Positions 30,530 to 43,203 of a stretch of DNA of 64,000 nt are shown here, piece by piece. A program made the position numbers and the translations under genes. Location: IMG/VR virus record IMGVR_UViG_3300044961_000667. One strand, written 5' to 3'. The DNA comes from a virus (Duplodnaviria > Caudoviricetes). The notes under the pieces were generated by a model. The model saw nothing but the letters and a program-made list of their open reading frames with translations, did no database searches and was not told the origin of the DNA. How positions within the stretch are numbered: position 1 is the stretch's first letter; each line of letters begins with the position of its first letter.

Positions 30530-30924
30530 TAGGACGAGACGATCTGACTGACAGCCGGGTACAGCTTCTCAACAGACTCGCGAGTCTGGTGCTCGACGCA
30601 CAGCGGCCACGACTTCATGTCGACCCAGCCGATGTGCTGCGTCCAGGCTGAACAGATCGCGCAGCGGCGCTGCTCTTCCTCGTTCGGCTTGTCCGAGAAG
30701 CGCAGCTGCGTGTCGAGCAGGTACTTGCGGTAGCACGCCTGCGCCTCTTCGGCGGTGGCATGCCCGTCGGCGTGGTAGTTCGCCTTCAGCGGCTCGAACT
30801 TCGCCTGGTGTTCCTTCACCATGCGCTCGATCTGCTCCGGGGAGCCCACGTACGACAGGTCCTCCGCGGTGAGCGGCCTCCACGCCTTGCAGTACCCGAC
30901 TGGCCACGTCTTGCCGTCGTTCAT
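30526..30924 (-). CDS. Conserved hypothetical protein (real start may be the upstream ATC near 30981)
   Basis: Open frame extends to INYYAARQR..FDFTCMNDG behind an AGGAGA RBS. Confidence 0.65.
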   Translation of the reverse strand: MNDGKTWPVGYCKAWRPLTAEDLSYVGSPEQIERMVKEHQAKFEPLKANYHADGHATAEEAQACYRKYLLDTQLRFSDKPNEEEQRRCAICSAWTQHIGWVDMKSWPLCVEHQTRESVEKLYPAVSQIVSSY

Positions 30925-30990
30925 GCAGGTGAAGTCGAAACGCTGATCAGACAGCCTCTGTCTCGCGGCGTAGTAGTTGATGGTTGTCTC

Positions 30991-31467
30991 CTAGATGTGC
31001 GCCCAGCGCTCCTTGCGTTCAAGCTGGCCGACATACCTTCGGTCAACACCGAATTGCTTGGCCACGGTGCTCGGTGAAACACCTTCCTCACGGAGCTTCC
31101 GAATCTTCCGAACGGCGTCGCCAGTCAGCCTGGCATTGCCGTGCTTTTCGCCTGGGTGCATTCGCCCCCGAACAACCGCGTCCTGAGAGTTCTCTTTGTA
31201 GGTCCCGAGCACAAGATGCTCTGGGCGGACACATCTACGGGTGTCGCACCGATGCCGCAGCACCTTGGTTCCGCGACCGCGCGGGAGAGACCCGAACCCA
31301 TACGCCAACTCGTAAGCAAATCGGTGCACCAGCATCTGCGATCCGTCGGTCAGATAGAGGGCTCCATACCCCTGCTTGGTCGCACCACCAGTCCACAACC
31401 AACACGTATCGGTCTTCTGGACCCGGCTCCAGAACTTATCGATCAAACCTTGATCAAAATCGTTCAT
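30991..31467 (-). CDS. HNH homing endonuclease
   Basis: FWSRV...CWLWTG...GYG...HRFAY...RHRCD..RCVRPEHL..GT..EN; lower GC. Confidence 0.9.
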   Translation of the reverse strand: MNDFDQGLIDKFWSRVQKTDTCWLWTGGATKQGYGALYLTDGSQMLVHRFAYELAYGFGSLPRGRGTKVLRHRCDTRRCVRPEHLVLGTYKENSQDAVVRGRMHPGEKHGNARLTGDAVRKIRKLREEGVSPSTVAKQFGVDRRYVGQLERKERWAHI

Positions 31468-31505
31468 GCAGTGGCGCAAGCCTCACGGGCTCGTCAGCAG
31501 GACTT

Positions 31506-31907
31506 TCACTTCTTCTTCTTGGACACCAGCTGGCCCAGGCTGAACTTGGGCTTCGGCGGGAGCGGGTCCGGACCCGGCGGCACGCCGGTGGGCACGGGCC
31601 TGGGAGCCACATCGGGCGGCGGCGGCGGCTTCACGGGCACGCCCAGCCGTCGATCGTCCTCGTCCAGCCAGACGTTCACCGACATGAGCGCCGCCGTCAG
31701 CGTGTCGAAGCGCTCCGACTGCTTCACGCTGGTCGAGCCGTTCGGGTACGAGCGGATCCACACCAGCTTCACAGGCTTCAGATCGCCAAGCGGTTGCCCG
31801 CGGCGAACAGCCCTCTTGTACGACTGGCTCGTCAGAACTTCGAGGTGTCCCTCCGGGCCAAGCCGAGCGAGCACCCCGGAGTAGAGCTGTTCGAGATCGA
31901 TGGACAT
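31506..31907 (-). CDS. Hypothetical protein, Pro-rich C-terminus
   Basis: ORF coupled to the RyR gene. Confidence 0.5.
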   Translation of the reverse strand: MSIDLEQLYSGVLARLGPEGHLEVLTSQSYKRAVRRGQPLGDLKPVKLVWIRSYPNGSTSVKQSERFDTLTAALMSVNVWLDEDDRRLGVPVKPPPPPDVAPRPVPTGVPPGPDPLPPKPKFSLGQLVSKKKK

Positions 31908-32272
31908 CAGTCGACCAGCTTCTCCAGTTGCCGCACGACGGCGAGGAACAGGTAGTCCTTCGCCTGCTGCTCCTTCGGCAACTGCTCGAATGGCACCAGA
32001 CAGTGGTGCGTCGGGGGCTTCGCGTCGGGGTCCTTCTTCTCGCCGTACACCCAGCCCGTCGCCACCTTCTCCTTCATCCACTCGGCGTGCGAGTCGGAGG
32101 GCTTCGAGTCCGGATTGGCGAGGTGGTAGTTGACGCCCTTCATCACGGACACCTTCTGCCACTCAGGCGCCTCGCTCCACGGCACCTGGCTCGTGTCGCC
32201 GATGGCCTGGCAGTAGGCCCGATTCACCTCGTGGCACACGGACGCGATGACCTCAACTTTCGACTTCGCCAT
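31907..32272 (-). CDS. RyR-domain phage protein
   Basis: CHEVNRAYC...HAEWMKEK...GWVYG..KD....THHCLVPFEQLP..QQAKD. Confidence 0.85.
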   Translation of the reverse strand: MAKSKVEVIASVCHEVNRAYCQAIGDTSQVPWSEAPEWQKVSVMKGVNYHLANPDSKPSDSHAEWMKEKVATGWVYGEKKDPDAKPPTHHCLVPFEQLPKEQQAKDYLFLAVVRQLEKLVD

Positions 32273-32936
32273 GACCAGCCCTCCTTCGTTCCCACATGGC
32301 CAAAGCGGCCAGTCGGTTCTTTTCGCGTGCCTCCGGCGAGTGTTTCTTGCCGGAAAAGTTCTTGTTGCCCATCAGACCAAGGCTGATGTTCAGGCTCCGC
32401 TCGGCGCTGTGTTTCTTGCCAGTCCGCTGCGTGACCAACAACTGGATCGTCTCCGGCGAATGCTTCTTTCCGATCTGGGCCGACCGAAGCATCTCCTGAA
32501 TGTGCTCTGGCCGAGACTTGCCACGATGGAGAGCGGCCAGCTTTCTCCTGGTCTCTGAAGAAAGCGTCCGCCCCTTCTGCGCCGCAGACATCTTCGCCTT
32601 AGCTTCCGGCGTGTGCCTGTACCCAAGAAGCGAACCGGCCTTGGGCGCCAGATTGTACGGCGGACTCAGCACGTCGATGTGGTGCTGCTCTCGCTCAACG
32701 AGCATGGCTGGATCTTCGACCCGCTCCACCACGGAGAAACGGAACGACGCCTCGCCGTACTTGTTCCAGGCCATCTGCAGTTTCTGATTGGGGTGCGTTC
32801 CGCAACGGAGATGATGTCGATGACCGTACCAACGCTTGGCACCGTGGACTGCGCTCCCAACGTAGAACTTGCCGTTGACGACGTTGGAGATCCTGTACAC
32901 GCAGGAAAAGCTGGCGATCTTCTCGACCTTCGACAT
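32253..32936 (-). CDS. GIY-YIG homing endonuclease with NUMOD3 repeats
   Basis: CVYRI.N..NGKFYVGSA...HPN..LQ.AW.KYG; HT.E.K.KMS repeats. Confidence 0.9.
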   Translation of the reverse strand: MSKVEKIASFSCVYRISNVVNGKFYVGSAVHGAKRWYGHRHHLRCGTHPNQKLQMAWNKYGEASFRFSVVERVEDPAMLVEREQHHIDVLSPPYNLAPKAGSLLGYRHTPEAKAKMSAAQKGRTLSSETRRKLAALHRGKSRPEHIQEMLRSAQIGKKHSPETIQLLVTQRTGKKHSAERSLNISLGLMGNKNFSGKKHSPEAREKNRLAALAMWERRRAGHGEVES

Positions 32937-32990
32937 GGGCTTCTCCTTTTCGTCCCATAGAGCCCGCATGGTCGCCGGCGTCAAGCGCTC

Positions 32991-33285
32991 CTATTTCTGG
33001 CCAGCCAACACCATGCGCAGCTTTCGCATAGCCTTGTCGGCGTCGTACAGCGCGGCCTCAAGCCTCTTGGCGGCCGGGTGCGGACCGAGCGCATCGATGA
33101 AGTGCTGGATGTCGATGAGAATCTCATCGAAGTGGGTCTTGTGGCTCCGCAGCTTCGCGAGGATGTCGCTGGCGGCCCCGCCGAGGGGCTCTTCGGCTTC
33201 CCCCCAGCGCCAGCTTCACGGACTCCAGGAGGGCGTTGGTGCGATCGAACGGACTACGACGAGACTCCACGCGCATCTGATTCAT
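32991..33285 (-). CDS. TNALLESVK-leader protein, frameshifted at a G6 run (33200-33205)
   Basis: MNQMRVESRRSPFDRTNALLESVKLAL; removing one G gives an open frame to TAG 32991. Confidence 0.6.
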
Positions 33286-33445
33286 GGCCAGCCCTCCCTC
33301 GTTTTCTCCACCGTCTTTTGAACTGCACGATGATGTAGCCGCGCTGCCTCGCCGGCAACACCGCTTTCACCTCGCGGCGCCTGCCATCGGTGTACACCAC
33401 GACGTCCCCCGGCTTCAGCTGCTTCAGCGTCTTGAGCGTGCTCAT
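33254..33445 (-). CDS. Small hypothetical protein
   Basis: LKPGDVVVY SH3-like. Confidence 0.45.
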   Translation of the reverse strand: MSTLKTLKQLKPGDVVVYTDGRRREVKAVLPARQRGYIIVQFKRRWRKRGRAGHESDARGVSS

Positions 33446-42452: not shown

Positions 42453-42456
42453 AAAG

Positions 42457-42528
42457 TCTGGAAGGCGGGGATCGAACCCGCGACCTCTCGCGTCCAAGGC
42501 GAGCGCCCTACCGCTGGACTACTTCCAG
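42457..42528 (-). tRNA. tRNA-Pro(TGG)
   Basis: Cloverleaf. Confidence 0.9.
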
Positions 42529-42530
42529 TT

Positions 42531-42545
42531 GTGCAATCGATTGCG
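42531..42545. repeat. GTGCAATCGATTGCG palindrome copy
   Basis: Exact 15-mer, 2 nt before tRNA-Pro(TGG). Confidence 0.8.
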
Positions 42546-42712
42546 TTCAAAACTGTGCAGTGCGGACTGGCGGTTTGCACCCGCTGCACCGCATTGTCGG
42601 CCTGGCCTCAATAGGCCGCACGGTCCCACGCCGTCGAACGCCAGGACCTGCACCAACCACCGCCATGTTCGACCTGCCAAGCGGTGCCCGTTCATGCCGG
42701 GATGCTGCACAG

Positions 42713-42784
42713 TACCCCGTACGAGAATCGAACTCGTTTCGCTCGCTTGAAGGGCGAGGGGCCTAACCAATGGCCGAACGGGGC
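42713..42784 (-). tRNA. tRNA-Glu(TTC)
   Basis: Cloverleaf; first 22 nt overlap the HNH ORF end. Confidence 0.88.
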
Positions 42785-43119
42785 TTCTCTGCTCGATCAT
42801 GCGTCCTCTGCCGATGACAGTTGGCGCAGACCACTTCACATTTCTCGATCTCGGCTACGACCTTCTCAGGTCCGACACCGTGCCTCTTGAACTGCCCCAG
42901 GCTGAACTCCTTCCGACCCCTGACGTGATCAAAGTCCATCACCCATGGCGGATAGGCGACACCGCAGTCCGCGCACGGCCTGGACTTGGCTTTGTCGATG
43001 ATCGCCTTGATCGTCTCTTTGTAGGCCGCTGCCGCTCTGATGTACGAGATCTTGTTCTTCTCGTAGTGCCTGCGGCTGTACTCGGCCTGCTTCGACTTCG
43101 ACGGCTCTCTGAGCGGCAT
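42763..43119 (-). CDS. HNH endonuclease
   Basis: PCADCG...MDFDHV...KCEVVCANCHRQRT; same family as 36452-36979. Confidence 0.88.
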   Translation of the reverse strand: MPLREPSKSKQAEYSRRHYEKNKISYIRAAAAYKETIKAIIDKAKSRPCADCGVAYPPWVMDFDHVRGRKEFSLGQFKRHGVGPEKVVAEIEKCEVVCANCHRQRTHDRAEKPRSAIG

Positions 43120-43152
43120 TCTTCGTCATACCACTTGACGAACCTTTCGTCA

Positions 43153-43198
43153 CTCCACCTTGAAAGGGTGTCGGCCTCACCTGAAGCACCAACGGGGC
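43153..43198 (-). pseudogene. 5' fragment of tRNA-Glu(TTC)
   Basis: GCCCCGT...CACC-CTTTCAA-GGTG; no T-arm. Confidence 0.65.
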
Positions 43199-43203
43199 TG
43201 AAG

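Follow-up and report, generated by a model that had tools for sequence, protein, structure and literature searches.

How can a gene for a homing endonuclease lie inside another gene without depriving the genome of that gene's function? This question is raised by a 64,000-nucleotide (nt) stretch of viral DNA (IMG/VR record IMGVR_UViG_3300044961_000667), which we refer to in its full length as the window. The window is a phage-like contig of 63% G+C with its genes on the minus strand, and it carries an array of 39 transfer RNA (tRNA) genes and a transfer-messenger RNA (tmRNA) gene at 36.9-45.8 kb together with eight nuclease genes. We confirm that six of these genes (HNH_a, HNH_b, HNH_d, PD_a, PD_b, and EndoVII) belong to cassettes that break a gene and supply a replacement for the broken part. 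The eight nucleases and their folds had already been named in a first-pass annotation made from the sequence letters, and Pfam and PHROG searches bear both out:

30991-31467, minus strand: HNH_a (HNH_3, PF13392)
32253-32984, minus strand: GIY-YIG/NUMOD3 nuclease (Pfam and PHROG)
35166-35552, minus strand: EndoVII (Endonuclease_7, PF02945, E 2.4e-19)
36452-36994, minus strand: HNH_b (phrog_2255 HNH, E 1e-26)
38982-39539: HNH_c (HNH_5)
40381-40788, minus strand: PD_a (PDDEXK_5, PF11645, E 3.3e-37; PDB 2OST, E 1.8e-9)
41899-42327, minus strand: PD_b (PDDEXK_5, PF11645, E 2.7e-22; PDB 2OST, E 1.2e-4)
42763-43119, minus strand: HNH_d (phrog_2255 HNH, E 1e-27)

HNH_b and HNH_d are paralogues within phrog_2255, and all open reading frames (ORFs) carried by cassettes fall in homing-endonuclease families by Pfam and PHROG matches.

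The evidence that carries this conclusion comes from natural alleles without the cassettes. Among GenBank phages there was no megablast match to 12 kb or 25 kb of the window, and a distant search returned only tRNA-level matches and weak similarity to Myxococcus phage Mx1; the single IMG/VR relative (L001 and L002; 65% identity in a 603-aa protein) is too distant for empty alleles and informative on the synteny of HNH_c only. The same or near-identical phages occur in hot-spring/microbial-mat, bioreactor, wastewater, soil, and biofilm metagenomes. Contigs of such relatives were found by exact-protein look-up and then aligned with the window, and for the empty alleles we used Logan contigs from four metagenomes of four studies aligned to positions 30000-46000. 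These contigs run directly across the place of the cassette at HNH_a (joint 30975>31462, skipping the 486 bases 30976-31461; runs X5, X7, and X8), EndoVII (joint 35150>35597, skipping the 446 bases 35151-35596; run X8), HNH_b (joint 36483>36991, skipping the 507 bases 36484-36990 with 3 other letters instead; runs X5 and X8), and PD_b (joint 41899>42418, skipping the 518 bases 41900-42417; runs X5, X7, X8, and X10). The skipped segments have 0-3 nt of junction microhomology, and run X5 holds both the filled and the empty PD_b allele.

Alignment to relatives lacking each nuclease had been proposed as a check in the first-pass annotation, and the outcome supports its reading: relatives without a given nuclease carry none of that nuclease's fragments. 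Specifically, L003, the end of a 123.7-kb contig that is 98-99.9% identical to the window outside the cassettes, is without HNH_a, EndoVII, HNH_b, PD_a, and PD_b and has at each site one intact gene made of the parts that are stranded in the window. At the HNH_b, PD_b, and PD_a sites this is one uninterrupted tRNA gene; ARAGORN calls all three, and the Rfam scores are 62.7 bits for tRNA-Pro(GGG) and 57.1 bits for tRNA-Thr, with the CUA-loop gene at HNH_b below the cut-off. The HNH_b and EndoVII cassettes are absent from L006 too, and PD_a is absent from L003 and L008. HNH_d is present in L003 and absent from L008, a contig with a more diverged array that has an intact tRNA-Glu(TTC) where the window has a stranded Glu fragment. 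At the five loci with an empty allele in L003, the old parts are 100% identical to L003 and the new copies 72-94%. The occurrence of stranded fragments beside diverged intact copies is far beyond chance.

The arrangement is most easily followed at HNH_b:

36991-37032, minus strand: stranded 5' part (acceptor to anticodon stem) of a CUA-loop tRNA-like gene
36484-36990, minus strand: HNH_b cassette of 507 nt, with a replacement tRNA-like gene and the HNH ORF
36456-36483, minus strand: stranded 3' part (T arm and acceptor)

The stranded 5' part (GACTACA loop) matches the corresponding part of the unbroken L003 and L006 gene without a difference. The replacement gene (36895-36970; 41.4 bits in Rfam) begins 20 nt from it, the cassette stands in the variable loop in place of the three nucleotides GAG of the empty allele, and the stranded 3' part also encodes the last codons and the stop codon of the HNH ORF, giving the order old 5' part, new intact copy, HNH ORF, old 3' part. 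Because the empty allele has a GAG that is absent from the filled one, it is not derivable from the filled allele by simple deletion, and this together with the 0-3 nt of junction microhomology makes insertion into an intact gene the parsimonious direction. As far as sequence comparison can establish a direction, the difference between the window and the empty alleles is thus shown to reflect insertion and not deletion. No start codon is available to the HNH_b ORF beyond the replacement tRNA, and the ORF must, therefore, be translated through this tRNA; the gene caller reports 175 codons with the tRNA included. Run X5, in which the empty allele is the main variant, also yielded a 568-nt contig over 36452-37020 that holds an HNH_b cassette with 48 differences (~92% identity), indicating that diverged versions of this cassette circulate.

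At PD_b, a PD-(D/E)XK nuclease interrupts a tRNA-Pro gene:

42418-42452, minus strand: stranded 5' part of tRNA-Pro(GGG), ending after anticodon base 36
41900-42417, minus strand: PD_b cassette of 518 nt, with a replacement tRNA-Pro(GGG) and the PD-(D/E)XK ORF
41863-41899, minus strand: stranded 3' part of tRNA-Pro(GGG)

The two old halves have acceptor strands (CAGGTCG and CGACCTG) that pair perfectly, and neither neighbouring tRNA-Pro has that stem. The insertion separates position 36 from position 37, in the middle of the pseudo-palindromic anticodon arm, and the order is old 5' part, intact tRNA-Pro(GGG), ORF, old 3' part. The replacement (42340-42412; 61.2 bits) is 73% identical to the old gene. 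The original tRNA-Pro(GGG) of the relative (L003:1416-1488) has C instead of U at position 33 (loop TCGGGAT).

The second PD-(D/E)XK nuclease, PD_a, brings only part of a tRNA gene:

40796-40841, minus strand: stranded 5' part of tRNA-Thr(GGT)
40309-40380, minus strand: predicted working tRNA-Thr(GGT), 58.2 bits

Within the stranded part, 40814-40841 is identical to the empty allele and 40796-40813 is a foreign anticodon arm derived from the cassette. The stop codon of the ORF (40381-40788) abuts the intact tRNA-Thr(GGT), which is composed of 28 new nucleotides at its 5' end (40353-40380) and the original 43 nucleotides at its 3' end (40310-40352); 68 of 72 positions are identical to the L003 allele, and all four changes lie in the D arm, inside the new 28 nt. 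The locus reads old 5' part, ORF, intact tRNA-Thr(GGT).

HNH_d has the same order in a tRNA-Glu gene (old 5' part, ORF, intact tRNA-Glu(TTC)):

43155-43198, minus strand: stranded 5' part of an older tRNA-Glu(TTC)
42712-43119, minus strand: HNH_d ORF (42763-43119) and replacement tRNA-Glu(TTC) (42712-42784)

Here, the ORF and the replacement (52.8 bits in Rfam) overlap by 22 nt, such that the first 22 nt of the tRNA encode the last residues and the stop codon of the ORF. The stranded part resembles the 5' part of the intact tRNA-Glu(TTC) of L008, with the same D loop, although only approximately. In HNH_d and its homologues in the IMG/VR contig L021 and phages Mx1 and Phabba, the stop codon lies within the D arm of the next tRNA (the proteins end in S, then A or S, then I and G; 42763-42784 in the window, L021:1790-1810, L096:930-960). 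Because the ORFs of HNH_b and of these nucleases extend through or into a tRNA, tRNA processing would destroy the nuclease mRNA and may limit nuclease expression. The phage tmRNA gene lies near these HNH/tRNA overlaps.

Old and new tRNAs have the same anticodon, similar Rfam scores, and 72-80% identity (94% for Thr). It is exactly around the insertion point that the duplicated parts diverge from the old allele; in the replacement tRNAs, most of the changes fall in the anticodon arm and the variable loop.

Two protein genes are targeted in a comparable manner:

35151-35596, minus strand: EndoVII cassette of 446 nt
35110-35150, minus strand: stranded original 3' end of the EndoVII target gene, encoding CPKCGYRDSCCF and a stop codon
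30976-31461, minus strand: HNH_a cassette of 486 nt; it interrupts the downstream gene after codon 2

The EndoVII cassette comprises a recoded new 3' end of a 65-codon target gene (35556-35596) and the nuclease ORF (35166-35552), and its far end (35151-35169) is a diverged copy of sequence upstream of the insertion point. The 65-codon gene upstream of the nuclease ends in CPKCHYRDSCCF with its own stop codon, and the second copy, CPKCGYRDSCCF, follows directly after the nuclease (tblastx E 2.7e-7). L003 has a single 3' end, to which the stranded one is 100% identical. The new copy is 92% identical in protein and heavily recoded in DNA; of the 13 residues of the gene end, 11 are retained, with ~10 of 39 bases changed. 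HNH_a instead takes over a start site. L003 has at this site a 151-codon gene starting at the ATG AAC that opens the HNH_a ORF in the window, such that the nuclease (30991-31467) uses the ribosome-binding site and the ATG of its target. The end of the cassette (30976-30993), here too a diverged copy of what lies upstream of the insertion point, provides the target gene (30526-30981) with a new AGGAG site and with ATC AAC, which stands in for the original ATG AAC. A 12-bp repeat noted earlier at HNH_a is not a target duplication, because its downstream copy is present in the empty allele too; what stands is that HNH_a is a real 486-bp insertion.

The picture that emerges differs in part from the initial one. 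It had been proposed that six nucleases lie between a stranded fragment and a diverged intact version of the same gene, and this holds for HNH_b, PD_a, PD_b, HNH_d, and EndoVII and not for the GIY-YIG nuclease. The folds involved are, consequently, three (HNH, PD-(D/E)XK, and EndoVII) and not four. The four tRNA or tRNA-like targets (the CUA-loop gene, tRNA-Thr(GGT), tRNA-Pro(GGG), and tRNA-Glu(TTC)) were correctly recognized, whereas more layouts occur than the two that were described.

The GIY-YIG nuclease is the exception to the pattern:

31901-33445, minus strand: GIY-YIG region; run X8 has the joint 31900>33220 with 1292 other letters

In L003, this place is occupied by an intact 237-codon gene, a DUF3307 gene, and a RyR gene. 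In the window, all that is left of the 237-codon gene is its first 77 codons, frameshifted (33214-33445); after ~220 nt of other sequence come the GIY-YIG ORF (32253-32984) and a RyR allele (31907-32272) only 58% identical to that of L003. A 21-nt similarity (E 0.003) links an internal part of the truncated gene to the start region of RyR, and the left boundary of the replacement coincides with the end of a TNxLLESVK motif common to four paralogues. The region thus looks like a segment replacement with a nuclease gene at the exchange boundary, not a compensated insertion. The stranded 5' fragment has one base more than its relatives (33316), causing the frameshift, and a run of six G near the break (33195-33215) would need another shift for continuation into a 74-codon frame that ends just before the GIY-YIG ORF; this could reflect decay or a hybrid gene with slippage. 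Three other metagenome variants lack a 134-codon paralogue of the TNxLLESVK family (34172-34576; segment 34139-34594) and have 11 other letters instead. This family is a hot spot for indels and recombination.

If the cassettes are mobile, they should vary independently among related genomes. The window contains all cassettes except one in tRNA-Met; L003 has HNH_d only, L007 has HNH_b and the tRNA-Met cassette, and L008 has the tRNA-Met cassette and neither PD_a nor HNH_d. These distributions show that the cassettes assort independently among genomes, and the existence of near-identical phages with unbroken genes shows that they are mobile. The window itself provides the empty site for the remaining one:

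39919-39991, minus strand: tRNA-Met(CAT), empty site (near 39948) for the HNH cassette of L007 and L008

The extra cassette of L007 and L008 comprises 459 nt in the order old 5' part, 121-codon HNH of the phrog_2255 family, new tRNA-Met (60.5 bits), old 3' part. Between the two contigs, 24 of the 366 nt of the HNH gene differ (19 codon changes are synonymous and three non-synonymous), compared with 1 of 601 nt in the flank. This contrast and the excess of synonymous changes show that the cassette has its own history and that the nuclease is under purifying selection. All three phrog_2255 cassettes (HNH_b, HNH_d, and the tRNA-Met cassette) interrupt the variable loop, in three different tRNAs. 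Both the old CUA-loop allele (L003:6033-6106) and the target tRNA-Met(CAT) score below the Rfam tRNA threshold, and the copies borne by the cassettes (41.4 and 60.5 bits, respectively) are more canonical than these old alleles.

Similar arrangements recur in other phages. Of the 80 best IMG/VR loci that encode phrog_2255 HNH relatives, 40 contain tRNA genes at a distance of at most 400 nt, and as a rule one of these follows the ORF immediately. In L021, a 5' piece of tRNA-Arg(ACG) is followed by an HNH gene and then by an intact tRNA-Arg(ACG) containing the stop codon of the ORF; in L028, a tRNA-Gly(TCC) is interrupted in its variable loop, the acceptor halves being complementary, and an intact tRNA-Gly(TCC) lies downstream; and L052 and L080 hold further stranded tRNA halves. 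These are hand-checked examples and do not give a frequency: automated counts of half tRNAs (cognate local alignment, nhmmer half profiles, and a stem-pattern scan) missed the window's own 5' fragments or matched reversed sequence equally. L098 and L099 contain PD_b homologues (64-66% identity) in the same layout in tRNA-Pro. Their old halves have an acceptor pair of their own (CAGGCTG/CAGCCTG, compared with CAGGTCG/CGACCTG in the window), and these separate compensatory pairs argue for separate invasions of tRNA genes that were intact when invaded. In L100, a PD-(D/E)XK homologue (48% identity) follows an uncalled, degenerate-looking tRNA-Pro-like sequence (L100:1370-1500) and precedes a T-arm and acceptor remnant (L100:1912-1940); to judge from its sequence, this locus may be an older, decayed cassette of the PD_b kind. 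A scan of IMG/VR with the PD alignment and a scan of JGI metagenome contigs with PD_b gave no matches.

We next consider what kind of element the cassettes represent. They are not embedded in a self-splicing intron or intein: at E<=1, no ribozyme or intron family in Rfam matched positions 30-47 kb, and the inserts consist only of ORF and replacement, with at most ~100 nt of non-coding sequence in the PD_b insert, which is the tRNA. A hidden intron was, therefore, rejected, with no Intron_gpI match and no room for a ribozyme. Integrase-type insertion was rejected likewise, because Pfam and PHROG searches detected no recombinase or integrase in any cassette and the duplicated parts are diverged and not exact repeats, and so was tandem tRNA duplication followed by decay. 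General, splice-free, self-compensating insertion, as put forward in the first-pass annotation, is supported by the empty alleles, the lack of a ribozyme match in this region, and the recurrence in unrelated viral contigs. We conclude with good confidence that the cassettes are probably free-standing homing-endonuclease elements that reside inside genes without splicing and carry a replacement copy.

Each cassette consists of one nuclease ORF and a diverged copy of the gene part disrupted by its insertion. In HNH_b, PD_b, HNH_d, and the tRNA-Met cassette, this copy is an entire tRNA gene; PD_a carries only the 5' 28 nt of one, EndoVII a recoded 3' coding end, and HNH_a a new ribosome-binding site with a start codon. 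In our working model, the nuclease would, during mixed infection, cut a related phage's unbroken allele at the insertion point or close to it; this point lies in the variable loop for the phrog_2255 HNHs and between positions 36 and 37 for PD_b. Repair of the break would copy the cassette, with the stranded original fragments and the flanks serving as homology arms; the broken gene would be dead, and its function would continue from the cassette copy, which differs around the target and is presumably uncut. The hybrid tRNA-Thr and the foreign anticodon arm in the fragment at PD_a form the pattern to be expected if one break end invaded the donor's stranded fragment and the other the donor's intact copy; the fragments would then act as homology arms. 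Cutting of the empty allele by each nuclease, immunity of the replacement, and function of the replacement tRNAs are inferred. More tentatively, phage tRNA arrays in general may be colonized by such splice-free cassettes (with at least three folds), which, by replacing tRNA alleles in repeated invasions, could be a main driver of tRNA turnover in large phages and could have been selected for escape from tRNA-cleaving defences.

Other explanations of the same observations have to be weighed against this model. The homing mechanism could be the same and the cassettes nevertheless be mainly useful to the phage, as weapons against co-infecting relatives and as a source of tRNA alleles escaping host tRNA-cleaving defences. 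The replacement tRNAs are changed mainly in the regions cut by Septu-like systems (the arm of the anticodon and the variable loop), in T6 Septu is overcome through tRNA amplification driven by SegB (PMC13096335), and filled and empty alleles are found in one sample; yet the protein-gene targets of EndoVII and HNH_a are unrelated to tRNA, and decaying fragments and the uncompensated damage at GIY-YIG look selfish, such that we regard a primarily beneficial role as unlikely. It is a good deal less plausible still that the nuclease genes are passengers on blocks moved by general or illegitimate recombination without site-specific cutting. Mosaic exchange is indeed common here, as illustrated by the 1.3-kb GIY-YIG/RyR replacement, the paralogue indel at 34139-34594, and small indels. 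However, mere passengers would hardly account for at least six independent insertions each with a homing-type nuclease, for clean junctions and near-identical flanks at the well-documented loci, for related nucleases that strike three different tRNAs at one structural position, the variable loop, for the same PD family in the anticodon loop of tRNA-Pro at only 64-66% nuclease identity, or for purifying selection on the nuclease.

Alternatively, the filled state could be ancestral and the uninterrupted alleles secondary products of precise deletion of old cassettes. Deletions between diverged repeats are possible and some joints have 1-3 nt of microhomology, but five separate deletions each restoring a perfect gene would be needed, the three nucleotides in the empty HNH_b allele are absent from the filled one, and the lineage-specific compensatory acceptor stems (window versus L098) are expected only if the genes were intact until recently; we consider this history very improbable. 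Finally, the stranded halves might still be used if the insert were removed at the RNA level, by an unrecognized intron or trans-joining, with the extra tRNA as a bonus. In favour of this, PD_b interrupts an anticodon loop, the region of bacterial tRNA group I introns, and its relative I-Ssp6803I is encoded by an intron, but Rfam gave no intron match, the non-coding space of at most ~100 nt is filled by the replacement tRNA, the 5' fragment beside GIY-YIG is frameshifted, and the upstream copy at EndoVII ends with its own stop codon, and we give this possibility hardly any credence.

Several observations weigh against our preferred explanation of the cassettes as homing elements that carry a replacement. 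The role of the nuclease in moving the cassette is deduced from family membership and polymorphism. In individual loci, the D stem of the new tRNA-Thr contains a C12-A23 mismatch, the replacement gene at HNH_b is tRNA-like but non-canonical, HNH_d lacks a recognizable old 3' part and has its sole empty allele (L008) in the more diverged array, and the GIY-YIG locus is an uncompensated loss. Most of the IMG/VR loci with HNH homologues show no detectable stranded fragment, and neither do the cultured phages Mx1, Phabba, and Myrna, in which the HNH homologue runs into the 5' end of the tRNA that follows; this suggests that fragments are short-lived or that many insertions are intergenic. Moreover, HNH_c is present in every variant and is syntenic even in the distant relative (L002:5251-5799), where, in a context of lower G+C, it lies after tRNA-Leu(CAA) and before a DUF5661-type gene and tRNA-Ser(TGA). 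From its conserved position, HNH_c looks resident and not mobile, and not every nuclease here would then be mobile.

Self-supplied replacement is not without precedent, and the closest one is found in fungal mitochondria. There, mobile endonuclease ORFs (mORFs) form 'gene hybrids': they insert in atp6, atp9, cox2, and nad3 with a foreign copy of the C-terminus and strand the native C-terminus (PMC3630166); the cases include atp6, atp9, cox2, and nad3 of Glomus and, as cited in the same paper, atp6 of Allomyces macrogynus. As in the cassettes described here, an endonuclease ORF lies inside a gene together with a diverged displaced end and without splicing, and the native end is stranded downstream and near-identical to the allele of close relatives; EndoVII has the same layout. 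The mORFs differ in that they occur in organelle genomes and affect only the 3' ends of protein genes, whereas the elements described here occur in a phage and mostly in tRNA genes, with a replacement that can be a whole gene, a 5' part, or a start site and can lie before or after the nuclease. The enzymes of mORFs are of the LAGLIDADG or GIY-YIG type, whereas those in the window are HNH, PD-(D/E)XK, and EndoVII.

For phages, the literature reports free-standing endonucleases that lie between genes and cut at a distance, the action of SegB on tRNA genes, and the splitting of genes into two functional halves (PMC2330249, PMC2988022, PMC13096335). SegB of T4 and T6 resembles the cassettes in being a free-standing nuclease in a phage tRNA array that is present or absent in close relatives, in co-converting flanking markers, and in having its target within a tRNA gene, where a T-arm motif is recognized; however, it lies between genes, the target tRNA gene is simply absent from T4, and no stranded halves or replacement copy have been described for it. 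With mobE in nrdA of Aeh1 and mobA in T4, the protein is split into two working pieces and there is no replacement. For PD_a and PD_b, the relevant homologue (PF11645) is I-Ssp6803I (PDB 2OST), the homing endonuclease of the group I intron in the anticodon loop of a cyanobacterial tRNA-fMet. Bacterial tRNA group I introns sit in the anticodon-loop region, and PD_b likewise lies in a pseudo-palindromic tRNA anticodon loop; here, there is no intron ribozyme, and what would rescue the function is a spare tRNA gene and not RNA splicing. I-Ssp6803I recognizes a 23-bp pseudo-palindrome (PMC3384342), and a pseudo-palindromic anticodon arm would, therefore, suit PD_b as a target.

Interrupted tRNA genes beside intact ones are also known from a Caldiarchaeum population, in which a tRNA-Thr(GGU) gene is broken by a 1.8-kb recombinase-like insert (Sugahara et al. 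2012, PMC3293823). This case has in common with ours a 5' tRNA fragment, a mobile insert, a different intact copy, and heterogeneity within a natural population, and tRNA-targeting integrative elements similarly replace the displaced tRNA part. Those elements have a recombinase or integrase, are kilobases long, and, if integrases act, are bordered by identical att repeats, whereas the cassettes have no integrase, have strongly diverged duplicates, and carry the nuclease as their only gene. In ICP1, homing endonuclease genes mark the edges of segments swapped between phages (PMC10448857), which fits the GIY-YIG/RyR region; in-gene insertion with a self-supplied replacement is not described there. 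Our literature searches turned up no account of nuclease cassettes that interrupt tRNA genes of phages and bring the replacement along. What is new here for a known type of element is, thus, the phage host genome, the tRNA targets, and the several folds and layouts.

A spare copy would represent a third harmless way for a homing endonuclease to live inside an essential gene, besides self-splicing and proteins split into two pieces, and it would act on phage tRNA genes with filled and empty alleles circulating together in nature. Such cassettes would explain why phage arrays contain orphan tRNA halves and isoacceptors that nearly duplicate each other, features that annotation pipelines overlook or label wrongly, and they offer a mechanism for rapid replacement of tRNA alleles that may be relevant to tRNA-targeting defence systems. 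The pairs of enzyme and target, with an empty allele and a putatively resistant replacement for each, also provide material for studying how HNH and PD-(D/E)XK enzymes read the DNA of tRNA genes.

Two minor features of the array were noted. A Leu-like tRNA with a long arm at 39753-39839 scores 44.4 bits in Rfam and is uncalled by ARAGORN. Between its tRNA genes, L003 has ~100 nt (L003:1866-1967) and ~75 nt (L003:2835-2922) of extra non-tRNA sequence; the counterparts without it in the window are at 41484 and 40143-40155.

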